NCBI GenBank assembly: GCA_028707065.1
Contig: JAQTUZ010000004.1
Location: 6,656 to 70,655 of the forward strand
Source of the DNA: Patescibacteria group bacterium
GTDB taxonomy: Bacteria > Patescibacteriota > Patescibacteriia > Patescibacteriales > WJLG01
Direction of reading: 5' to 3'
Length of the DNA stretch: 64,000 nucleotides
The translations under genes were made by a program, and so were the position numbers. Numbering within the stretch: position 1 is the first letter of the stretch; each line of letters opens with the position of its first letter. The notes beneath the pieces were generated by a model, which did not search any database, was not told where the DNA came from, and saw nothing but the letters and a program-made list of their open reading frames with translations. This document shows, in pieces, positions 4,602 through 61,571 of the stretch.

Positions 4602-6047
4602 TTATCGCACTTCCTGCCAGGAAAGGATGGTGTATTGGTCGGAGGTTTGAGGAAAGCTGGGCGGCGGCGAGTACAATAAGTGTTCGTCATAATTGATATT
4701 TCTGATCTGATAGCCGGTGCCGCCGACGTAGGCAAAACCATAGCGCAGGCTGGAAGCGATCATGCCATTGAGGGTTAAGGTCGATTTGATAGCGTCGGAA
4801 CCGCAGTAGCTTGAGCCGTTAGCGTAATAATAGCGGCCGGCGCGCCCGGTTTCGGCGACTAGCGCGGCGTCAATGGTTAAAATATTCTGGCTATACAATC
4901 CGACATTGATATTATTTTGGGCGATCAGCGAAATGACATCGCGTCCGTCATCGTTGGTGTAGCGCAGATTATTATTGATGGTAATGCTTTTTCGCGTGGC
5001 AGGGTCGTCGGGGAAAGCCGCCGCGGCAATGGTTACCCGGGCGGTATTGATCTGCCCCTCGACAAAAACATTATCCTCCAAAAAGATTATACCGTTGCCG
5101 GGGAAAGGATAGTTGCCCAAAAGAGTCTGCGTATTGACGCTCCAAGTGCCCCAGCCGGCTTGGTAGTTTCCGGCGTTAGTGCAGTTGCTTGACGGCGAGG
5201 CTTTGAGGACGGTGACTTGATAGAGGTCGAAGGTGTCATTGGTTTTTAAGATCAGATTATAACCCATGGCGCCGGAACCGGCGCGATAAAAACCATTGGC
5301 GACGGCGTCGGTTTTCATCTGCGCCAGATCAGCGGTCAGTCCGGTAAAGTCCACCGCTGGCACGGGAAATTGCCGGCCGGCCACAAAGACATCGGGTCGA
5401 TTGGGGACGGAAGCGGGGGGCACTGGATCGTACGAGCCGTGATGAGTGTAGACGCCGAACTCGTTTGATTTTATGTCAGAGTCATTATCGTAATACTGGG
5501 TCAGGGCGCTGGTGACCAGATTATAGGCGATGCCGTCGAAATGGATGCCTTTATTGGAACTGATCGGGCCCTGGACTATCGTGCCCTCGCCAAAGCGCAT
5601 ATTATCATTGGCGACGACGGCGAATTTGGCCAGCGAAGGCTTGGCCATTTTAGTTTCGATCACTCTTGAACCATGAAAATCACTGATAGTTTTTCCCGTC
5701 GAACGAACCGTGACAATGCTCGAGCCGATCAGCGGCGGCGTGATAGCCAGAGAAAAACTGCCGACCAGACCCCCGGCTTTATTATAAAATTGATGGACAT
5801 AAGGCCCTGGTCCGGCCGTGCCGTCTTGATAATCGGTCGGGGCGTGCGCCAAATGCCAGCGATAATATTCGCTGCCTGATTCGGCGATTTGAAAAGCCGC
5901 TTCGCGCTTCACCGCTTGTTGCGCCGCGCGCAGATTGATCATGGCCCAGCTGACGATTCCGCCCATGATGATCATGGCGATCGTCCCGAAAACGAGCACC
6001 AGCGGCAAGGTTATACCGTCTTGGTTATTGATTATTTTTAGCCTCAT
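4602..6047 (-). CDS. PilX-N-like large pilus-associated protein
   Basis: N-terminus MRLKIINNQDGITLPLVLVFGTIAMIIMGGIV…QIAESG resembles the PilX N-terminal hydrophobic segment. No G|FTLxE prepilin site. Large beta-rich C-terminal region. ATG at 6047 is preferred over TTG at 6068. Confidence 0.55.
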   Translation of the reverse strand: MRLKIINNQDGITLPLVLVFGTIAMIIMGGIVSWAMINLRAAQQAVKREAAFQIAESGSEYYRWHLAHAPTDYQDGTAGPGPYVHQFYNKAGGLVGSFSLAITPPLIGSSIVTVRSTGKTISDFHGSRVIETKMAKPSLAKFAVVANDNMRFGEGTIVQGPISSNKGIHFDGIAYNLVTSALTQYYDNDSDIKSNEFGVYTHHGSYDPVPPASVPNRPDVFVAGRQFPVPAVDFTGLTADLAQMKTDAVANGFYRAGSGAMGYNLILKTNDTFDLYQVTVLKASPSSNCTNAGNYQAGWGTWSVNTQTLLGNYPFPGNGIIFLEDNVFVEGQINTARVTIAAAAFPDDPATRKSITINNNLRYTNDDGRDVISLIAQNNINVGLYSQNILTIDAALVAETGRAGRYYYANGSSYCGSDAIKSTLTLNGMIASSLRYGFAYVGGTGYQIRNINYDEHLLYSPPPSFPQTSDQYTILSWQEVR

Positions 6048-6864: not shown

Positions 6865-8664
6865 TTAATGGGGCATTAAAATGACTTGGTGCTGCTGCCA
6901 GGACGAGGAAGCGGTAATCGTTTCATGGCTGGGATCGAAACCCAATTTGGAAACATCCAGGGTATAATCAGCGTCGGTTAAGCCGTCAAATAGCACTTGT
7001 CCCGACGGCACGCAGAGCGAAGAAAAAGTAAAATCGACTTCGCCGACGTTGGGCGTGAAAGTCGAACTGGCAGTGGCCAGATAAATTTTGTAGCGGAAAT
7101 AGCGCTTGTTATTATTAATGGCGCTGATATTGGTGTCAGTGGCCGTGTAATAAGTTGAAGCGGTGCCGTCCGGCCCCTTAAAGTCCCAGGTTAAATTGTC
7201 ATTATTGGTGGCGAGCTGCAAGCGGACGCTCGAAGTGCCGGCGCTCTCCGGCTGATCGGTCGGTGAAAATTCCAGCTGATAAAAATTGCTGACCGAACCG
7301 GTATCGAACGTCGAAGAAGTCAGATCTCCGGCCGCGGCAAATAAGCCGGCATTGTTTTTTAATTTTATTTCTCCGGCCGGGTCAGCCGTTTCAATATTGC
7401 CGTCGGAGCTGGAATAAGAAGTTTGGTCGATAAAATTTTCCTGGCCCGAGCCGCCCGACCAATCAGACTGCCGCAAGAATCCCCGCCCGGTGATCAATTG
7501 TTTGGTCGAAGTTCCCAAAGACAATTCCACGGTGGCGCCGGAAAGCGGCTGGGTTGTGCCTCCTTGTTTGACGCTGACCAAAATACTATTGGGATTTTTG
7601 GGAGTGGCGACGATTTTTACCTCCTGGGTGCTGCCGGGCGCGAGCGAGAGAGGAATCGGGGAGATCGAACCGGCCAAATCGCGGGTAGTATCGGTGAAAG
7701 TCAGGGTGTAGGTGTCCCACTCGAGATCGTTGATGATTTTTAATCCGGTCCCGTCGGTGGTAAAATCATTTTGATATTTTAAAACATCGGGAGAGCCGAT
7801 CAGTTTGCTCCCCCGCAAATTAAAGGCGATATTGGCTACTGGCGCGCAAGTTTGAGTGACGCTTTCAATGTTAAGCGTCGCGACTCGGTCGATCATAAAA
7901 CTGGTTTGTGTTACTTGCTGGGTGAGGACGGTCGCGTCCGGCATCGTCGGACTGGGATTAGTGGAAGAGCCCATCGGATAGGTCCGGTCTTGCGAATAGC
8001 CGCTTTTGCTGACGAAGATTTTATAGACGTTGGCGCCCGGCGGCACGTCGACGATCGTGAGAATGCCGTCGTTGTTGGTGACATCATTGATTATTCTCGG
8101 CGGCTCGGCCTCGTTGTTTTCGATGTGGACTTCAGCTTCCGGCACCGGCTGGCCGTTGGCGTCAAAAACGCGGACAAAAAGCGCGCCGTTGGTGGTGGAA
8201 TTTTCCAAATTTTTCGGGGCGATGTATTCGGTGTAAATCTGCGCCGGAAAGCGGGAATTGCCGGGCACGGAAATTTTCAGTTCCATCCGCTTATAGTCGG
8301 CCGGCGAAGTATCATTCGGAGTGCCGCCGATGGTTCCGTCGAACGGATCATCAATATTGCTTATGAATGTTTCTACCAGAAAATTAAAATTATCGCGCGC
8401 GATATTTTGCAGGGGCGGTATTTTTCCGAGCGGGATGCCGCTCAACAGGCCGACATCGGCATAAGGCAGGTTGTGGGCGATTTCGAATTGCTCATTGGCT
8501 AACGCGGCGGAGGAGACGAGCATTCTTGATGTTTCAACCAAGCGGGCCGCCATTTCAAACGCCCCGTAAATACCTACGGTGAAAAGCAAAAAAACCGCCA
8601 GGCCCACGATACCTTCGATCAGAGTAAAACCGGCGGCGCTTGATTTTAGTTTGGGTTTTTTCAT
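6865..8664 (-). CDS. giant (600 aa) prepilin-type pseudopilin with carboxypeptidase-regulatory-like beta-sandwich region
   Basis: Start MKKPKLKSSAAG|FTLIEGIVGLAVFLLF at 8664. The 767-aa ORF-track call runs 504 nt further into pilC and was trimmed. An internal segment (FVRVFDANGQPVPEAEVHIEN…GILTIVDVPPGANVYKIFVSKSGY) looks CarboxypepD_reg-like. Confidence 0.7.
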   Translation of the reverse strand: MKKPKLKSSAAGFTLIEGIVGLAVFLLFTVGIYGAFEMAARLVETSRMLVSSAALANEQFEIAHNLPYADVGLLSGIPLGKIPPLQNIARDNFNFLVETFISNIDDPFDGTIGGTPNDTSPADYKRMELKISVPGNSRFPAQIYTEYIAPKNLENSTTNGALFVRVFDANGQPVPEAEVHIENNEAEPPRIINDVTNNDGILTIVDVPPGANVYKIFVSKSGYSQDRTYPMGSSTNPSPTMPDATVLTQQVTQTSFMIDRVATLNIESVTQTCAPVANIAFNLRGSKLIGSPDVLKYQNDFTTDGTGLKIINDLEWDTYTLTFTDTTRDLAGSISPIPLSLAPGSTQEVKIVATPKNPNSILVSVKQGGTTQPLSGATVELSLGTSTKQLITGRGFLRQSDWSGGSGQENFIDQTSYSSSDGNIETADPAGEIKLKNNAGLFAAAGDLTSSTFDTGSVSNFYQLEFSPTDQPESAGTSSVRLQLATNNDNLTWDFKGPDGTASTYYTATDTNISAINNNKRYFRYKIYLATASSTFTPNVGEVDFTFSSLCVPSGQVLFDGLTDADYTLDVSKLGFDPSHETITASSSWQQHQVILMPH

Positions 8665-29677: not shown

Positions 29678-32443
29678 ATGCCGAAAAACAAGAAACCCGC
29701 GAAATTATCTTCCGTCCGCCCTGGGCGGACTACGGCGGACAAGCCCGCCTCCGCCAAGGCTACGGCGGACAAGGGCGGAAAAAAGCATAAAGTCGAGAGA
29801 AAAGAGGAGAAAGAAAAGAAAGTGGATAAAAAATCCATAGCTATTCCTGTTGGCGAAGTTGCGGCCGATAAAGCGGAGAAGAAGCAGCCTAAGCTGGAAA
29901 ATCCCGTTTCCGCCAAGGCTATGGGGGACAAGCCGGAGGACAAGGGCGAGATGGTCGGGCTGCAGCCTAAATCCGGCATGGGACAATCACGGACCATGTA
30001 TGGCTTGGTGCAAACCCAGCCGATCGTCGAAGAAATGAGCCGGTCATATTTGGATTACGCGATGAGCGTAATTGTTTCGCGCGCCTTGCCTGACGTCCGC
30101 GACGGCTTGAAACCGGTGCACCGCAAGATTTTATACGCGATGTGGGATATCGGCTTGCGCGCCGGCGGTAAATTTAGAAAATCAGCTACGGTCGTCGGCG
30201 AGGTCTTGGGCAAATATCATCCGCACGGCGACAGCGCCGCTTATGAATCGATGGTCCGCATGGCGCAGGATTTTTCCATGCGCTATCCGCTCGTCAAAGG
30301 CCAGGGAAACTTCGGTTCGATGGACGGCGATTCGGCCGCGGCCATGCGTTATACCGAAGCCAAGCTCTCGGCGATTTCCGAGGAGATGCTTTTTGATATT
30401 GATAAAAATACTGTTGATTTCATACCGACTTATGATGGTTCGCATCTTGAGCCGAGCGTTCTGCCATCCAAATTACCCAATCTTTTATTGAACGGCACCA
30501 TGGGCATCGCCGTCGGCATGTCCACGGAAATCCCGCCGCATAATTTGCGCGAACTTTCCGACGCCATCGCTTATCTGATCGAAAAACCGGATGCGACAGT
30601 CGAAGATCTCTGCCAATTCGTCAAAGGCCCGGATTTCCCGACCGGCGGAATTATTTATAATCAGAAAGATATCGAATCGGCTTACGGGACGGGCAAAGGC
30701 GGGATCGTGATGCGCGGCGTGGCCGAGATCGAAGAAATGAAAGGCGACAAATTTCAGATCGTCATTTCCGAAATACCCTATCAGGTTAATAAGGCGACTT
30801 TAGTGGAAAAGATCGCCGAGTTAGTGACAGAGAAAAAGATCGATGGCATCCGCGATTTGCGCGACGAATCCGACCGCGAGAAAAGCGTGCGCATCGTGAT
30901 TGAATTAAAGAAAGATGCTTATCCGAAAAAAGTTTTGAACGCCTTGTTCAAGATGACCGCCCTGCAATCAACCTTTCATGTCAATATGCTCGCCTTGGTC
31001 GACGGCATCCAGCCCAAGGTTTTGAATTTGAAATCGATTTTGGAAGAATATATCAAGCATCGCGAAGTGGTGGTCAGGCGCCGGACGCAATATGATCTGG
31101 ATAAAGCCAAGGATCGCGCCCATATTTTGGAAGGCTTGGTGATCGCTTTGGAAAATATCGATGCCGTCATCAAGACGATCAAAGCTTCCCGCGACAAGGA
31201 TGACGCGAAAATAAATCTGATCAAGAAATTCAAGCTGACCGAACGGCAGGCGATCGCCATTTTGGAAATGAAACTCCAGCAATTGGCCAATCTGGAAAGA
31301 TTGCGCGTCGAGGAAGAACTGAAAGAAAAGAAAAAATTGATCGCCGAATTGGAAGCGATCTTAAGATCAAAAACTAAAATATTAAGCATCGTCAAAACGG
31401 AATTGAAAGAATTGGCTGATAAATACGGCGATGAGCGCCGCACCCAAGTCGTCGCCCGCGGCGTTAAGGATTTTAGCATTGAAGATCTGGTGCCGAACGA
31501 AGAGGCGATCGTGATGATGACCCGCGATGGCTATATCAAGCGCCTGCCGCCTGATACGTTCAAACAGCAGGAACGCGGCGGCAAAGGCGTGATCGGCTTA
31601 TCGACCAAGGAAGAAGATACGGTGGAATTCATGTTCACCACCATGACTCATACTGATCTGCTATTTTTTACTACCAAGGGGCGTGTTTTCCAATTAAAGG
31701 CTTATGAGATTCCCGTGGCCTCTAGAACGGCCAAGGGCACGCCGATCGTTAACTTCCTTCAATTATTGTCCGAAGAAAAAATAACTTCCACTTTGCCTTT
31801 GGACAAGATCGTCGGCGCGGAATATTTATTCTTTGCCACCGAGCAAGGCTTGGTGAAAAAAGTCAAGCTGGAAGCTTTTGCCAATGTCCGCCGCTCCGGA
31901 TTGATCGCCATTAAAATAAAAGGCGAAGATAAATTGATCTGGGCCAAGCCGACTTCTGGCACTGACGATATCCAATTGATCACTTCCGAAGGCCAGTCGA
32001 TCCGTTTTGCCGAAGATGATGTTAGAGAAATGGGCCGCAATGCCGCTGGCGTCCGCGGCATCCGCCTCAAGGGCAAGGATGTGATGGTCGGCATGGGCGT
32101 AATTTCCACTGATAAAGAAAGAGTGAAAAAATATCAATTGATCAGCATTATGGCCAACGGTTTTGGCAAGCGCTCGCCGCTTTCTCTCTATAAAGTTCAG
32201 GGCCGCGGCGGTTCAGGCATCCGCACCGCGCATGTCACTGACAAGACCGGCAAATTAACCAACGCTTTCGTAGTCAATGCCGAAACTATGGCTGACCGCG
32301 ACCTCATTATTATTTCTGAAAAAGGCCAGGTGATCCGTCTGCCGTTCAAGCAGGTTAACGAACTCGGCCGCGACACCCAGGGCGTCCGGGTGATGCGCTT
32401 CAAGGAAGAGGGCGACAAGGTCGCCTGCGTAACCTGGGCCTAG
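29678..32443 (+). CDS. gyrA: DNA gyrase subunit A (start ambiguous; possible ~100-aa Lys/Ala-rich N-terminal extension)
   Basis: [33 protein letters not shown], the active-site region AAMRYTE, and C-terminal beta-pinwheel repeats. Alternative in-frame ATGs at 29951, 29978 and 29996 would give a canonical N-terminus. Confidence 0.95.
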
Positions 32444-32517
32444 CCCCCCTCCTTTCGAAGGAGGACCCCCCTCCTTTTCAAGGAGGGGTTTGGGGGTGGT
32501 TCTGGGGGTGGTTCTGC
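32444..32517. repeat. GC-rich palindromic element, intergenic reference copy (two hairpins plus a GGGGGTGGTTCT x2 tail)
   Basis: CCCCCCTCCTTTCGAAGGAGG, then CCCCCCTCCTTTTCAAGGAGGGG, then TTTGGGGGTGGTTCTGGGGGTGGTTCTGC directly after the gyrA stop. Confidence 0.9.
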
Positions 32518-32567
32518 GGGGAGGGCGGGGGCGATTTCAGATTTACGATTTTCGATTTTTTTGTTTT

Positions 32568-32601
32568 GGCAGAATCTCCTCTCGGGGGATTCTGCCCTTT
32601 T
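32568..32601 (+). terminator. intrinsic terminator downstream of gyrA
   Basis: GGCAGAATC-N11-GATTCTGCC followed by CTTTT. Confidence 0.7.
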
Positions 32602-32664
32602 GTCCGGCGTGCTCATAAGTATTTTAAACAGTATAATATAATTGAATAAAACATAAAATAAATT

Positions 32665-33003
32665 ATGAATTCGATCTTGGGCGCGTTTTTGATCGGTATC
32701 GGGTTGAGCGTGATAACGGTTTTTGCCGATGCCTTGATAAAACATGCCTCGCTGCAAAATGCTTTTTCCGGGTGGCGAACGCTGATTTTGGGCGCGATTA
32801 TCTATGGCTTAACCGCTTTCGGCTGGTTTTTTACCATGCGGAAAATAAAACTTTCCACGCTCGGAGTTTTATACGCGGTTAGTTGCGTCATTTTGCTGAC
32901 TTTAATAAGTATGTTTTATTTTAAAGAAAGAATATCTCCTTGGGAAATTAGCGCTATAATTTTGGCGATTTTTTCTCTGATCATCCTTTTCCGTTTTGCT
33001 TAA
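32665..33003 (+). CDS. 4-TM small transporter (SMR/EamA-half, ArnE/F-like)
   Basis: 112 aa with four predicted TM helices and the general pattern of SMR-like small membrane transporters. Confidence 0.55.
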   Translation: MNSILGAFLIGIGLSVITVFADALIKHASLQNAFSGWRTLILGAIIYGLTAFGWFFTMRKIKLSTLGVLYAVSCVILLTLISMFYFKERISPWEISAIILAIFSLIILFRFA

Positions 33004-42106: not shown

Positions 42107-42156
42107 CTTCAAATAATTGCAAAACCACTCTTTAAACGGGGGTGGTTTTGTTTTAA
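42107..42156 (+). terminator. intrinsic terminator; right copy of the ~48-bp direct repeat
   Basis: CTTCAAATAATTGCAAAACCACTC-TTTAAAC-GGGGGTGGTTTTGTTTT. Confidence 0.85.
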
Positions 42157-48367: not shown

Positions 48368-49573
48368 ATGAAAAAGGAAACGTCAGTCAATCTATACCAG
48401 GAATTGGGAGTTGATTCGGGAAAAAGAATCGTGCGTAAAGTCTTCAAGAGGCTCGTCCGGAATGAATTTCCCGGCGCGTTCTGCAATATCGTGGCTGATC
48501 CGATGGTGCCGGGCTGGGTGATGACCCAACATGGCGATGGCGATGGCAGCAAGATCGTGCCCCGGATAATCCATTATTTGGAAACCGGCAAGCCCGAAAT
48601 CATCAAGGGCTCGGTCGATGACGGGATGACGATGAATTACGCGGATGTGGCCGCGGCTGGTTTCGTCTATGGCTATTCGGTGATTACGGACACGATAAAT
48701 TTCGGTCTTCCGAAAAAACTGAAAGAAATCGTGATGACCCAGATGGCGGCGCGAATCGCCGAATTGATCGATTTCTACGCCAAGCATGGTATCAACTTGA
48801 TTTATTTTTTGGGCGGCGAAACGGCCGATCTGCCCAATCAGGTCTGTTCCGCCGTGTTTGATGTCACGGTCAATGCGCACATGCCCAGAGAAAAAGTCAT
48901 TGCCGGAAACGTCAAACCGGGTGATGTTATTTACGGTTTGGCCAGCGGCGGCAAAGCGCGGGGGGAAAAGGTGGAAAGTTCCTGGTTGATGTCGAACGGT
49001 TTGACCCTGGCATCTTCCTGCCTGCTGCACCGATCATATAACAAAAAACACCGCGATATCTTGCGCAATCCTTTTTGGTTCAAGGGTCGCTATCGGATCG
49101 GCGACGTTCCGGCTGGGCTGGGTTGCGAAGTGAACGAGGCGCTGCTGGCGCCAACCAGACAATGGGTGATCTTCATCCGTAAATTTCTGGATTATCTGGA
49201 TCATGAGGGCATTGGAAAAATGCTTCATGGTATCAGCGTTAACACCGGCGGCGGAGCCACGAAAATTCTTCATGTGGGCGAAGGCGGTATCCGCTACGTT
49301 AAAGAAATGCCGACCCCGGGGCCGATCTTCCAACTCATTCATGAGGAATCCGGCCAGAACTGGCGCAATATGTTCGAGACTTTCAATTGCGGAGTCGGGC
49401 TTGACGTTGTCGGCAAAGATGATCCGCGATTTCAACGGGCCATCAGCCAAGTAGCCGCGAACTGCGAAATCGAGCTTTATCGGCTCGGCCAATGCGAAGC
49501 CAAGGAAGGGGAGAATGACGTCATCTTGAAAACTCCTTATGGGACGTTCGACGACTATACGAAGAAGAAGTAA
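48368..49573 (+). CDS. purM: PurM-like (AIR synthase family) protein, divergent
   Basis: Matches to E. coli PurM blocks recalled from memory: GGETADLP (GGETAEMP), LLAPTRQWV (LLAPTRIYV), NTGGG (LTGGG), MFETFNCGVGL (MYRTFNCGVGM). The GTDGVGTK block is altered to HGDGDGSK. Confidence 0.65.
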   Translation: MKKETSVNLYQELGVDSGKRIVRKVFKRLVRNEFPGAFCNIVADPMVPGWVMTQHGDGDGSKIVPRIIHYLETGKPEIIKGSVDDGMTMNYADVAAAGFVYGYSVITDTINFGLPKKLKEIVMTQMAARIAELIDFYAKHGINLIYFLGGETADLPNQVCSAVFDVTVNAHMPREKVIAGNVKPGDVIYGLASGGKARGEKVESSWLMSNGLTLASSCLLHRSYNKKHRDILRNPFWFKGRYRIGDVPAGLGCEVNEALLAPTRQWVIFIRKFLDYLDHEGIGKMLHGISVNTGGGATKILHVGEGGIRYVKEMPTPGPIFQLIHEESGQNWRNMFETFNCGVGLDVVGKDDPRFQRAISQVAANCEIELYRLGQCEAKEGENDVILKTPYGTFDDYTKKK

Positions 49574-50065: not shown

Positions 50066-50333
50066 CTTTGTTTGGTGTGTTTTTGGTGTTGGTGAAGAAA
50101 AAATATTAGCCCTTGCGGGCGCCCGTCAGGGCTACTTTCTGCTTTGAAATTACCACCAAGCCGATTGTTTGTCAAGGGGCGGTTTTGGGCGTCTTTATAT
50201 CCCAAAAAGGCAAAAAAATAACCCTCCTTGATAGGGGGGGGCTGTTTGTTGAAATTTATAAAAAGATAATTTTTGGACAAATTGAAAGGGGACTGTTGAA
50301 TCAGTCCCCCTCGTGATCGTTTTTTGAGGTCAA

Positions 50334-57307: not shown

Positions 57308-59266
57308 ATGGCGGGAAGAAGGATCATCATTTTAATTTTTGTTTTAGGCGCATCGGCGGTCATCTTGGCCGCCGGTGCGTTTGTATTGGAGAAAAAGAAT
57401 TTTTCCGCGGAAAAGGCGATCAGCCCGGATCGGCCGGCTAATGAAGCGGTGAATGAATCGGCGCATATTTTTCCTTATGATCGTAATCTTTTCAATTCAG
57501 CCATCAGTAAAAATTATCTTGAGCGAATGGCGACGAGCGGGCCGGTCATTGCCGGCCTGGTGCCGCATCATGAGTTGGCCGGGGATCTGGCCGCGGAATT
57601 TTTTTCCTCGCTGGCGCAAAAACAAAAAGTTAATAATTTCATTGTCATCGGACCCTTGCACTCGGATCAAGCGGTCGGCCCCGCGGTAAGCGGGCGGTTT
57701 ATCTGGGATGCCGGGTTTGGCCAGGTGGAAAATAATTATGAAATACTGGACGATCTGGTCGCGGCTCATTTGGTGGTTTATGACGAGAATGCGGTGCGGA
57801 GCGAGCACGCTCTTTATAATATGGCGCCGTTCATCGCCCATTATTTTCCGGAGGCGAAGATCGCGCCGATCGCCTTGACTTCGCGTAATTCTCCGGAACA
57901 ATGTTTCGCTTTGGCTCAGGCTCTGCAGAAATATCTGGCCCAAGGGGATACGGTGCTGGTCGCCTCGATCGATTTTTCCCATTATCTTCCGGCTGATCAA
58001 ACTCCGGCCAAAAATTTGCGAATGATCGAGTTGATAAAAAATAAGGATTACCAGACGATTGCCGGCCTGGCCAATGATTATTTGGATTCGCCCCCTTCGC
58101 TTATCACCTTGCTTAAGGCCGCTGATCTGTCGGATGCCGGCGTTAATATTTTAGCTTCGACCAATTCCGGAGAAATTACCGGGACGCCGGTTCTTTCTTC
58201 AACCAGCTATATCAGCGCCTTTTTTGCCGTCCCCCTCCTTTCAAATGAGTCTGTCCCCGCGAAGGCGGGGAAGGGGTCTGGGCCCGTCTCGGTTTTACCT
58301 ACAGCGTCCAGTAGTCCCTTGAAGCTGCTTTTTTTCGGCGACATTATGCTTGATCGCCAGGTCGGCGAAAAGATCAAGGCTTCGGGAAGCTTGGACTGGA
58401 TCTTCAAGGGCTTGAATTCGACCGGAATTTTTCAAGGCAATGATATTGTTTCCGCCAATCTGGAAGGCGCGGCCACTGATAATGGCGCGCATTATCCGCC
58501 GGCCTTGGTTTTTGATTTTGCTTTCGCGCCCAAGCTGGTCGGAGAGCTCGCGAAATATAATTTTAATTATTTTAATCTGGCCAATAATCATTTAGCCGAT
58601 CAGGGCAAAAATGGTATAATAGAGACAGAGAAAAATCTTACTGATCTGGGTTTTGTTTTTGCCGGCTGCCAGGATCGCCAAGTCGGCGACTGCACGGCCA
58701 AAATTGTGGAGAAAAGCGGCCGCCAGATCGGGTTGATCGGCGCGAGCATGGTTTATGGCGCGCTTGATGAAAACCGCCTGATCGCCGAAGTAAAAAAGCT
58801 GGCCAGTTCCACCGATTTAGTGGCGGTGCAAATACATTGGGGAACGGAATACAAGCACGAGGCGGCGGCCAACCAAACCGTTTTGGCGCGCAAATTGATC
58901 GATGCCGGCGCTGATATCATCATCGGCCATCATCCGCATGTGGTCGGCGGGGTGGAACTATATAAAAATAAGCCGATTTTTTATTCGCTGGGGAATTTCG
59001 TTTTTGATCAGTATTTTTCTCTTGATACGCAGGAAGAGTTGGGAGTGAGGATAGCCGTAACCACCCCCAAACCCCTCCTTGGAAAGGAGGGGGGCGAGGG
59101 GAAAAATTTCCAGATCGATCTTTTGCCGATCAAATCGGAAGCCGGACGCTTGCGCCTGATGAATAACGCGGAGAAAGATAAATTTTTGACCAAGCTGGCG
59201 GGCTGGTCGATCGGCGATAAAAATTTTTTGTCGGAAGTCGGAGCGGGTAAAATAGTTATTGAATAA
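57308..59266 (+). CDS. fusion protein: Memo-like (AmmeMemoRadiSam B-type) N-domain plus CapA/PGA_cap metallophosphatase C-domain
   Basis: N-terminal TM helix. Memo-like blocks are GLVPHHELAG and ASIDFSHYLP. CapA-like blocks are LLFFGDIMLDR, ANLEGA, NLANNHLADQG, GHHPHVVGG and YSLGNFVFDQ. Confidence 0.7.
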   Translation: MAGRRIIILIFVLGASAVILAAGAFVLEKKNFSAEKAISPDRPANEAVNESAHIFPYDRNLFNSAISKNYLERMATSGPVIAGLVPHHELAGDLAAEFFSSLAQKQKVNNFIVIGPLHSDQAVGPAVSGRFIWDAGFGQVENNYEILDDLVAAHLVVYDENAVRSEHALYNMAPFIAHYFPEAKIAPIALTSRNSPEQCFALAQALQKYLAQGDTVLVASIDFSHYLPADQTPAKNLRMIELIKNKDYQTIAGLANDYLDSPPSLITLLKAADLSDAGVNILASTNSGEITGTPVLSSTSYISAFFAVPLLSNESVPAKAGKGSGPVSVLPTASSSPLKLLFFGDIMLDRQVGEKIKASGSLDWIFKGLNSTGIFQGNDIVSANLEGAATDNGAHYPPALVFDFAFAPKLVGELAKYNFNYFNLANNHLADQGKNGIIETEKNLTDLGFVFAGCQDRQVGDCTAKIVEKSGRQIGLIGASMVYGALDENRLIAEVKKLASSTDLVAVQIHWGTEYKHEAAANQTVLARKLIDAGADIIIGHHPHVVGGVELYKNKPIFYSLGNFVFDQYFSLDTQEELGVRIAVTTPKPLLGKEGGEGKNFQIDLLPIKSEAGRLRLMNNAEKDKFLTKLAGWSIGDKNFLSEVGAGKIVIE

Positions 59267-59860: not shown

Positions 59861-61005
59861 AAATATCCAAGAATTACTTTATGGCCGTGGCGGTTTTGGT
59901 CGGCGCGATTACCGGCGCCGGAGTTTTTGCCATGCCTTTTGTTTTGACTCATTCCGGTCTTTGGCCGTTTGTTTTTTGGTTTCCCATTTTGGTCGCGGTC
60001 CAATGCCTGATCCATCTTCTTTTTGCCAAAGTCATTTTGTCCACCAAGGGCTTGCACCGCGTTCCCGGCTACACGGAAATTTATGCCGGAAAGAATTGGA
60101 AAAAAATTGTTTCGATTTTTGCCGTAATCGGCGGCTGGGGCACGATCCTGGCCTATATAATTTTGGGCGGCGTCTTTTTTAATCAGTTTTTTTCCCCGCT
60201 GATCGGGGGCAGCCTTTTCACTAATTCGCTCATTTTTTTCGCCTTGGAAACTGTGGTGGTCATTGCCGGATTAAAGACGATCGCGGGATCGGAAATGATT
60301 TTTTCCTTTTTACTCCTTATTTTATTCGTGGTGCTGTCGGTCAAATGCTTCGGCCGGTTTGATCTGAGCAATTTTACGGCGGTCAATTGGGAGGATTTTT
60401 TTCTCCCTTATGGCGTGATTTTTTTCGCGATTGGCGGCGATGCGGCCATTCCGGAAGTGGTAAAACTTTTGGATAAGGAAAAGGAAAAAATAAAAAGCGC
60501 GATCTTGTGGGGGACGATCTTGCCCGCGGTTATGATGTTTATTTTTGTGATCGCCACGGTCGGGGCAATGGGCGCGTTGACTACCGCAGACGCTTTGTCT
60601 GGATTGAACAAATTTTTCGGCAATGGCTTTGTTTCCATCTCCCTGCTTTTCGGCTTAATTTGCATTGCCACTTCGTTCTGGGTATTTGCCCAAGCGGTGC
60701 GGGAAATATTCTGGTGGGACTTTAAGATCAATAAGTATTGGTCGCTGGTTTTAGCCGTCGGCGTTCCGCTGGCATTTTTTATTTTCGGCTTTACTAATTT
60801 GACGACAGTCGTTTCTCTTTCCGGCGCGATCACCAGCGGCGTTTTAGGAATTATTCTGATTTCTCTGACCGCGGCCGTGGACCGTGAGGGGCAAAAAAAA
60901 TCGCCCATCGCCATTAAAACTTCCCGGCCGTTGGCGATCGTTTTGTATTCTCTTTTCATTGTCGGGTTTTTGACCGAGCTGTGGACGATAATTTTTAAAT
61001 TATGA
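59857..61005 (+). CDS. amino-acid permease-like transporter (~11 TM helices)
   Basis: The N-terminus …AVAVLVGAITGAGVFAMPFV… is typical of amino acid/aromatic amino acid permease families. 382 aa and polytopic. Confidence 0.65.
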   Translation: MKISKNYFMAVAVLVGAITGAGVFAMPFVLTHSGLWPFVFWFPILVAVQCLIHLLFAKVILSTKGLHRVPGYTEIYAGKNWKKIVSIFAVIGGWGTILAYIILGGVFFNQFFSPLIGGSLFTNSLIFFALETVVVIAGLKTIAGSEMIFSFLLLILFVVLSVKCFGRFDLSNFTAVNWEDFFLPYGVIFFAIGGDAAIPEVVKLLDKEKEKIKSAILWGTILPAVMMFIFVIATVGAMGALTTADALSGLNKFFGNGFVSISLLFGLICIATSFWVFAQAVREIFWWDFKINKYWSLVLAVGVPLAFFIFGFTNLTTVVSLSGAITSGVLGIILISLTAAVDREGQKKSPIAIKTSRPLAIVLYSLFIVGFLTELWTIIFKL

Positions 61006-61571
61006 AAATCGCGGTAATTTCCGATCTTCACGATAATCTGGTCAACTTGAGAAAATGTCTCTCTTGGTGCGGGCAAAATAATATCGAGAAGCTGATCTGC
61101 TGCGGCGACGTGACCAACGCGGAGACGCTGGGAATTCTTTCCCGGGAATTTAAGGGAGAAATTTTTTTAGTCCGCGGCAATTTGGAGATCTACCAAGAAG
61201 AAGAAATCGAGCCTTATAAAAATTATACTTATGGCGGGCGGCTTGCCGGCCATAGCCTTGGCGACGGCCGGACGGCGATTTGGGAGATTGATGGAAAAAA
61301 AGTCGGCGTCTGCCATGAACCTTTTTTTATCAATCAAGTTTTAGCAAAAGCAAAATCCCCCCTCCTTTCTAAGGAGGGGTCTGGGGGTGGTTCTGCAAAG
61401 GCGGCGGACATCGTCTTTTACGGCCATACTCATAAGCCCTGGATCGAAGAAAAAGACCATGTTCAAATAGTGAATCCGGGAACTTTGGGCGGAGTCTTCA
61501 CTCAGCCGACTTTTGCTGCTTGGGATACCGTGAGTGGTAAACTGGAATTAAAATTGCTGAATAATCTCTAA
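61002..61571 (+). CDS. YfcE/MJ0936-type metallophosphoesterase
   Basis: MKIAVISDLHDN, CCGDV, VRGNLE and FYGHTHKP motifs. Carries a 14-aa insertion encoded by the GC-rich palindromic element. Confidence 0.8.
   Translation: MKIAVISDLHDNLVNLRKCLSWCGQNNIEKLICCGDVTNAETLGILSREFKGEIFLVRGNLEIYQEEEIEPYKNYTYGGRLAGHSLGDGRTAIWEIDGKKVGVCHEPFFINQVLAKAKSPLLSKEGSGGGSAKAADIVFYGHTHKPWIEEKDHVQIVNPGTLGGVFTQPTFAAWDTVSGKLELKLLNNL

Follow-up and report, generated by a model that had tools for sequence, protein, structure and literature searches.

The analyzed window comprises 64 kb of a Patescibacteria metagenome-assembled genome (MAG), taken from a 90-kb contig, and all copy counts given for it refer to these 64 kb. 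A gyrA-type open reading frame (ORF; 29678-32443, stop codon TAG at 32441-32443) encodes a DNA_topoisoIV domain and six DNA_gyraseA_C blades (Pfam); its product starts with a Lys-, Glu- and Ala-rich extension of approximately 100 residues (29678 to about 30000), the topoisomerase domain beginning at residue 135. The stretch behind it, from 32444 to 32530, contained two hairpins of the CCCCTCCTT-N3-AAGGAGG(GG) type and two GGGGTGGTT tails (Table 1). That two hairpins follow directly upon the gyrA stop had already been recognized in the initial annotation of this DNA, and the sequence is as described there. Hairpin A lacked an adjacent tail of its own, and could use the second tail as its third arm, in which case unit B would lie inside its second loop. 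The second tail itself is the product of a tandem duplication of the 12-nt segment GGGGGTGGTTCT.

A terminator scan located a canonical terminator downstream of the cluster (32568-32605) and no intrinsic terminator at the triplex units, which run into TTTG and then into G runs; a terminator role for the cluster was dropped in view of this separate terminator. Searches of the 64-kb window against Rfam 15, tRNAs included, remained without a match at gathering score, and those of 32300-32750 gave none even at E-values up to 1. The fold z-score was only -1.5, and ViennaRNA predicted the hairpin alone. Tandem heptamers (GCGATTT CAGATTT ACGATTT TCGATTT) occupy 32531-32563, and 4-5 copies of CGGATTT/CGGATGT were found at the gyrA stop of relatives (among loci L166, L170-L172 and L176); heptamer repeats behind gyrA in several relatives look like a conserved 3'-UTR feature.

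Table 1. Coordinates of triplex-type units, their arms and related features in the window
Feature	Position	Strand	Description
Hairpin A	32444-32464	+	CCCCCCTCCTT-TCG-AAGGAGG: pyrimidine arm, loop TCG, shortened purine arm
Hairpin B	32466-32488	+	CCCCCCTCCTT-TTC-AAGGAGGGG, after a single A following hairpin A
Unit B	32468-32501	+	Complete class II triplex motif; all 9 triplets fit the rule
Unit B, pyrimidine arm	32468-32476	+	CCCCTCCTT, then loop TTC
Unit B, purine arm	32480-32488	+	AAGGAGGGG, then loop TTTG
Unit B, reverse-Hoogsteen arm	32493-32501	+	GGGGTGGTT, then CTG
Second copy of third-strand arm	32505-32513	+	GGGGTGGTT, then CT
G-rich relic	32516-32530	+	GCGGGGAGGGCGGGG; 3' end of the 87-nt block without counterpart in L166
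Possible relic	50221-50241	.	Imperfect CCCTCCTT-GAT-AGGGGGGGG hairpin, intergenic, weak
Decayed unit, Memo-CapA linker	58231-58290	+	5' arm intact, remainder degenerate
Complete unit, CapA domain of Memo+CapA ORF (57308-59266)	59059-59092	-	Encodes VTTPKPLLGKEG
Complete unit, YfcE/MJ0936-type phosphodiesterase ORF (61002-61571)	61359-61392	+	Encodes (S)PLLSKEGSGGGS

The units were 34-39 nt long and consisted of a homopyrimidine arm, a 3-nt loop, a complementary homopurine arm, a second loop of 3-4 nt, and a G/T arm mirroring the purine arm. The last of these had been taken initially for a tail appended to the hairpin, but within the triplex motif it makes up the third arm: the purine arm AAGGAGGGG read backwards is GGGGAGGAA, and the tail is GGGGTGGTT, each A becoming T or staying A. 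A mirror of this kind, in which each G faces a G and each A faces a T or an A, is the code of antiparallel purine-motif triplexes (G.G-C, T.A-T/A.A-T). In all three intact copies of the window CCCCTCCTT and AAGGAGGGG formed 9/9 Watson-Crick pairs, and the nine triplets of GGGGTGGTT with AAGGAGGGG conformed to the code without exception. With a stem of 9 nt and loops of 3 and 4 nt, the window unit lies within the limits of the ITxF definition (stem 6-15 nt, loops 1-6 nt; PMC4666352). As judged from its sequence, it has every structural attribute of a class II purine-motif intrastrand triplex, and the single strand bearing the predicted triplex is d(CCCCTCCTTTCTAAGGAGGGGTCTGGGGGTGGTT).

Across genomes, tails changed together with stems. 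Of 73 C-rich pyrimidine-purine hairpins whose stems differed from the query, 50 were accompanied by a mirror tail on the 3' side (one mismatch or none), while random places qualified in 47 of 3650 cases. Stem and tail pairs included CCTCCCCTT/AAGGGGAGG with GGTGGGGTA, CCCTCCCCTT with GGGTGGGGTA, TCCCCCTTT with AGGGGGATT, and CCCTCTCCC with GGGTGAGGG, and five further stems (CCCTCCTT, TCCCCCTT, CCCCTCTCTT, CTCCCCCT and CCCTCTCCT) were found in relatives at the gyrA locus, each with its matching tail. In a blind test on 304 units picked on G opposite G only, the base opposite A was T in 612 cases, A in 217, C in 59 and G in 51, so that T or A stood opposite A in 88% of cases overall and in 92% at internal positions. 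This covariation shows selection for mirror symmetry under a code that pairs G with G and A with either T or A, and in principle a protein reading both arms could leave the same pattern. Among the matches listed, 121 of 145 exact genomic hairpins had a GGGG(T/A)GGT tail within 50 nt, as did 47 of 50 exact hairpins from viral contigs within 45-50 nt; the frequency of such tails in control 50-nt windows was 1.3%. Information content dropped to approximately zero immediately beyond the three arms (137 unique contexts), position -1 alone being biased, to T or C. Since the tail adjoins most hairpins and conservation ends at the arms, hairpin and tail form one unit.

The window contained 10 strand-specific matches to the pattern CCCCTCCTTNNNAAGGAGG with up to two mismatches (0.02 expected from shuffles), and four matches to GGGGGTGGTTCT with up to one mismatch (0.09 expected). 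Three full units (32468-32501, 59059-59092 and 61359-61392) differed at three loop positions alone. The existence of a genuine dispersed repeat family, proposed in the initial annotation, was confirmed. Copies inside coding regions were also confirmed, but they fall in two ORFs rather than in the three regions then proposed, one ORF with an intact and a decayed unit and the other with a single unit. The fragment reported at about 50221-50245 does hold a hairpin, but it is weak, a recognisable third arm is absent at 50221-50241, and its membership of the triplex-unit family is uncertain. Two further candidates were discarded, namely GGGGGTGGTTTT at 42138, which belongs to an ordinary unrelated terminator stem, and a chance half-match at 49502. 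Within the decayed linker unit, positions 58254-58269 form a perfect small hairpin (CCCCGCGAAGGCGGGG) that resembles the mini-hairpins seen in the second loop of one subclass of units (see below). All units placed a perfect Shine-Dalgarno core, AAGGAGG, within an ORF or a 3' UTR (e.g. at 32480-32486, 59084-59090 and 61371-61377), and the 5' arm and loop of the copy at 61359, CCCCTCCTTTCT, are one position off the 3' end of 16S rRNA, CACCUCCUUUCU.

Comparison with relatives revealed the cluster behind gyrA to be an insertion. The closest relative found was L166, with 93% identity across the 300 C-terminal residues of GyrA; its gyrA stop is followed directly by GCGATTTACGATTTCAGATTTTCGATTT (GCGATTT...), the equivalent of 32531-32563 in the window, and because L166 lacks the intervening 87 nt, the block 32444-32530 is an insertion placed exactly at the stop. 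The block was also missing from L176 (96%), which carries a different unit past its terminator, and no unit at the gyrA stop was found in any of 80 relatives. The CapA unit is likewise a precise insert, of 36 nt (12 codons) at 59057, absent from three syntenic orthologs. No target duplication was detected at 32444/32530 or at 59057. Ortholog comparison, with CapA and YfcE orthologs lacking the insert, thus bears out the initial suggestion that the coding copies are in-frame insertions.

The linker between Memo and CapA (PGA_cap) is built on a triplex unit as well. A unit lies at the same Memo/CapA site in four genomes, in states ranging from perfect in L124 (7611-7644) through half decayed in L121 (about 7680) to decayed in the window and in L123; the shared site and the graded decay identify it as an old common insertion that now evolves as coding sequence. 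The perfect state of the L124 unit despite divergence would reflect either constraint, gene conversion or re-insertion, or a decay slower than assumed. In L122 the PGA_cap gene stands alone, without fusion to Memo. A stop-free intergenic unit could have aided the fusion of the Memo and CapA genes.

At the YfcE site the window exceeds the ortholog in L121 by 48 nt (16 codons). The modal length of YfcE orthologs was 163 aa; the segment at the insert site was short (16-18 residues) in 79 of 112 orthologs and measured 20-60 residues in the remaining 33. The DNA of four long-loop orthologs held different, partly degenerate units at slightly shifted codons: a perfect unit of the mini-hairpin subclass in L122, one of the same subclass with a slightly degenerate tail in L123, two tandem units in L125, one perfect and the other with a mismatched tail, and a rearranged copy in L124. 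From these differing units and remnants at shifted codons, the loop has been hit repeatedly. The flanks of the window insert at 61356 (GCAAAA|...|GCAAAG) are ambiguous, and could be a short duplication. In an AlphaFold model (AF2; mean pLDDT 89) the insert occupied one of only two low-confidence blocks and had no secondary structure, lying between a helix (107-117) and a strand (137-140), so that a disordered loop at the surface is predicted.

The composition of the arms bears on their tolerance within genes. A homopyrimidine arm contains no A or G and a homopurine arm no T, and both are consequently free of stops whichever strand and frame are read; the same applies to the G/T third arm, stops being possible at loop junctions only. 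By manual derivation, the copy at 61359, whose loop is TCT, is open in two of three frames on either strand, and the frame in use yields a Pro/Gly/Ser-rich peptide. The symmetry of codons within the stem, pointed out in the initial annotation, is accordingly no feature of design but a by-product of triplex composition together with selection for lengths divisible by three. Likely coding copies were found in sense orientation in 35 cases and in antisense orientation in 22, a weak bias that is confounded by units tailed on both sides.

The unit is not specific to this genome, as it recurs in many phyla as well as on viral contigs. The exact hairpin CCCCTCCTT-N3-AAGGAGGGG, sought in one genome per species, was present at a minimum of 120 loci (at least 120), and the matches listed include Chlamydiota, Bacteroidota, Acidobacteriota, Nitrospirota, Gammaproteobacteria (with Thiomargarita), Planctomycetota, Chloroflexota and Patescibacteria, two cultured isolates being among them. 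It also occurred in 40 viral stretches (L126-L165, IMG/VR viral contigs). Contigs 3300044996_000692 and 3300038435_000085 were among those with 4-6 copies, and several viral units had a third arm on both sides, such that either strand could fold. The exact identity across phyla was at first taken for horizontal transfer; convergence is now judged at least as likely, because the space of C-rich homopyrimidine 9-mers is tiny and the stem dictates the tail. Across phyla, 13-22% of hairpins lay within long ORFs, compared to 49-75% of random sites; the units are thus depleted from genes, not excluded from them, and in relatives of the window genome they were found inside holA (L124) and GlyRS (L123). 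Searches of the literature with the unit sequence strings matched unrelated primers and oligonucleotides only, and the concatenated unit-encoded peptides, used as query, gave 81 candidates with one weak match.

In one subclass the second loop was a mini-hairpin of variable sequence, in many cases belonging to the GCGAAGC or CTTCGG type (e.g. TGGCGCGAAGCGCC), with apparent compensatory changes in its stem; such a mini-hairpin would leave the third arm able to return to the main stem. The subclass was seen at L001, L014, L033, L036, L056, L063, L064, L081, L112, L122 (10336-10373) and many viral loci, and a long version, AGCTCCCCTCCTTACGAAGGAGGGGTGGCAGCCGCTTCGGCTGACGGGGTGGTTCTCT, recurred nearly unchanged in several contigs. 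Compound arrangements were also observed. A Thiomargarita MAG (L069) contained a head-to-tail array with a 41-nt period (7048-7312), made of five exact hairpins with two degenerate copies between them, as well as an inverted pair at 5892/5944, and in relatives the units were often arranged as inverted pairs at close spacing, with two different stems and their own matching tails (L171, 3129-3196; L218, 2127-2205; L225, 3300-3392), much like the type A plus type B pairs of E. coli.

Among known repeats, the closest architecture is that of the class II intrastrand triplex motifs of Holder et al. 2015, in which pyrimidine, purine and reverse-Hoogsteen arms lie on one strand and which occur in Proteobacteria, E. 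coli among them, and in Cyanobacteria (PMC4666352). Their TM_ECO, the same element as BoxC (credited to work of the 1990s) and PIT (credited to Maher et al. 2000), measures 37 nt with 9-nt arms, CCCTCNCCC-N3-6-GGGNGAGGG-N3-GGGNGAGGG; Escherichia coli K-12 carries 23 of them, all between genes, with some arranged in inverted pairs of type A plus type B (PMC4666352). CD and NMR showed a very stable triplex for the single strand of TM_ECO but not for the duplex, stable triplex went undetected by in vivo footprinting, and the loci vary between strains, the question whether copies were inserted or deleted being explicitly raised (PMC4666352). The repeat described here shares with BoxC/PIT/TM_ECO the class II arm order, the 9-nt G/C-rich arms, a first loop of 3 nt and a second of 3-4 nt, and a length of approximately 35-37 nt. 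Many near-identical copies per genome, present as single units and as inverted pairs of unlike members, are a further likeness, as are the lack of an associated transposase, for the window within the 40 ORFs scanned, and the differences in presence among close relatives. It differs in its arms (CCCCTCCTT/AAGGAGGGG/GGGGTGGTT in the window, CCCTCNCCC/GGGNGAGGG/GGGNGAGGG in TM_ECO), and the window unit does not match the TM_ECO/BoxC consensus; TM_ECO-pattern units were recovered by the scanner in other loci (e.g. L056, L020), as a positive control. Moreover, the host is a Patescibacteria MAG and two of the three intact copies lie in frame within genes, whereas TM_ECO is reportedly always intergenic, and the second-loop mini-hairpins of other genomes exceed the 1-6-nt loops of the ITxF search.

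Rickettsia palindromic elements (RPE), to which the repeat had been compared in the initial annotation, are palindromic elements that measure about 100-150 bp and follow an RPE consensus, and to our knowledge they occur in one lineage only and lack a triplex-type third arm. The analogy holds for behavior, in that a short palindromic repeat inserts in frame into genes and the added peptide is tolerated, but not for size, architecture or class, the window unit being a three-armed element of 34-39 nt. With H-DNA the units have in common the mirror symmetry of homopurine sequence as well as the triplet code of the purine motif; a duplex mirror repeat suffices for H-DNA, however, whereas here all three arms are carried by one strand, which is able to form the triplex by itself, and the preference for T over A opposite A means that the unit is no true mirror repeat. 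Small cyanobacterial repeats are similar in being very short, less than 40 nt, and apparently mobile without a recognisable transposase. For these repeats we know of no reported triplex rule. Their mobility is stated in the title of a paper, 'Very small mobile repeated elements in cyanobacterial genomes'.

Taken together, the block at 32444-32530 is probably a small cluster of a structure-defined dispersed repeat of 34-39 nt with BoxC/PIT/TM_ECO-type architecture, inserted in this lineage between the gyrA stop and a pre-existing 3' UTR. The family is best filed as a member of the known class of intrastrand-triplex repeats, not as a lineage-specific RPE-like element. Units were copied to new sites within the genome, as near-identical copies and empty sites in relatives demonstrate, and copies were gained inside genes, with clean junctions at two clear sites; tandem and partial duplications (the gyrA cluster, the 41-nt array of L069) and inverted pairs of two stems occurred as well. 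In the mechanism that we propose, the single-stranded unit would fold such that the major groove of the hairpin is filled by the third arm through reverse-Hoogsteen G.G-C and T.A-T/A.A-T contacts. Spread or retention would depend on this folded single strand, a dependence that would account for the covariation of third arm and stem, and the route may involve replication forks or a structure-recognising host enzyme acting in trans. Gene-internal copies would survive selection if their length is a multiple of three; their arms are stop-free, their Pro/Gly/Ser-rich product lies in a surface loop or linker, and the survivors would later decay like ordinary coding sequence. The gyrA copy presumably has no dedicated regulatory role, as close relatives lack the block and a normal terminator follows it.

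A different origin would be that of a REP/REPIN- or MITE-type element moved by a dedicated transposase (of the RAYT or IS200-type HUH kind) encoded elsewhere in the genome, with the symmetry serving as recognition site, which we consider unlikely. As outlined in PMC3116915 and PMC3733652, REP/REPIN sequences are GC-rich hairpins of 20-40 nt, mostly extragenic, that occur as singlets, inverted doublets and clusters, and the units resemble REP/REPIN/BIME in size, in the hairpin and in their occurrence as singlets, inverted pairs and clusters; insertion without target duplication would in addition suit single-strand HUH transposition, and the second loop of one subclass carries stable DNA mini-hairpins of the GCGAAGC type. 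The tetranucleotide tag given for REP/REPIN in the outline of PMC3733652 (GTAG or CGTC at one hairpin end) was nevertheless absent beside the triplex hairpins, with no conserved flank beyond the arms, and no transposase association was found for TM_ECO in E. coli (PMC4666352). Nor were RAYT, transposase, HUH or integrase domains found in 40 scanned ORFs of the window (64 kb of the genome), and single units lack the terminal inverted repeats of MITEs, with no target duplication at the two clear sites. The mirror-repeat third arm, and the same rule with different stems across many phyla, also set the triplex family apart from REP/REPIN and fit a single sequence-specific enzyme poorly.

It is very unlikely, in our assessment, that the cluster acts at the RNA level, either through hairpins in the gyrA 3' UTR that hinder 3' exonucleases or aid termination, or through the AAGGAGG arm and GGNGGT tail as Shine-Dalgarno-like sites of binding or pausing. 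Its position between the gyrA stop and the terminator indicates that it is transcribed, the stem is stable, the Shine-Dalgarno core is perfect, the 5' arm resembles the 16S rRNA 3' end, and the slight excess of sense copies points in the same direction. Relatives with 93-96% GyrA identity, however, lack the block and have their own terminators, the units occur in both orientations and within ORFs, and neither the Rfam search nor the fold z-score gave support. The covariation of G opposite G and T opposite A has no explanation in RNA base pairing, and purine-motif triplexes do not form in RNA (PMC4666352); PIT/TM_ECO elements, for their part, showed neither promoter nor terminator activity (PMC4666352). 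Selection of the G-rich half (GGAGGGG-N-GGGGTGG) as a G-quadruplex former instead of a triplex is more improbable still. Four G runs extend over the purine arm and tail, and CD spectra alone cannot tell the two structures apart (PMC4666352), but neither the C-rich arm nor a T or A placed specifically across from each A is required for a quadruplex, tails such as GGGGGATT opposite AAAGGGGG reach past any G tract, and NMR identified TM_ECO as a triplex and not a quadruplex (PMC4666352). Finally, there is hardly any chance that a conserved protein motif (Pro-Leu-Leu-x-Lys-Glu-Gly) accounts for the coding copies and coincidental resemblance for the intergenic one. The linker copy is indeed common to four Memo-CapA orthologs; the residues are missing, however, from 79 of 112 YfcE orthologs and from three CapA orthologs, other YfcE orthologs have different units at shifted codons of the same loop, the DNA of the copies matches across unrelated genes and an intergenic site, and the peptide is predicted to be disordered, so that for the two intact coding copies this explanation is refuted.

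BoxC/PIT/TM repeats have been known since the 1990s, and new to them here are the in-frame insertions in genes, the evidence for gain over loss, the arm sequence and the host phylum. Polarity comes from copies in conserved proteins and from empty sites at 93% identity, which show gain, together with an age series from perfect to decayed units. We put forward tentatively, as a possibility still open to considerable doubt, that intrastrand-triplex units may be a pan-bacterial and phage-borne form of structure-defined mobile DNA, whose fold-dependent spread would be sustained by core host replication and repair without a transposase, and that they may be a recurrent source of loops and linkers in gene-dense Patescibacteria. 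That the fold itself is selected or propagated can be argued from the three-arm rule in Patescibacteria, many phyla and viral contigs and from the co-varying tails, and a new source of loops and linkers is suggested by the YfcE inserts in 33 of 112 orthologs and by the Memo-CapA linker built on one unit. If this is true, coding copies would provide the test of gain versus loss, and the dating, that BoxC/PIT repeats have been missing for decades. For annotation, the units account for recurrent Pro/Gly-rich peptides (PLLxKEGxGGGS) and for variation in the length of surface loops.

YfcE of the window carries in addition a second, unrelated in-frame insert, which is not a triplex unit. It consists of 30 GC-rich nucleotides at 61239-61268 (CGGCTTGCCGGCCATAGCCTTGGCGACGGC) encoding GRLAGHSLGD, is absent from L121 and most orthologs and common to P0003, and was modeled with low confidence in AF2 (block 81-90 with mean pLDDT 58, residues 82-86 below 50).
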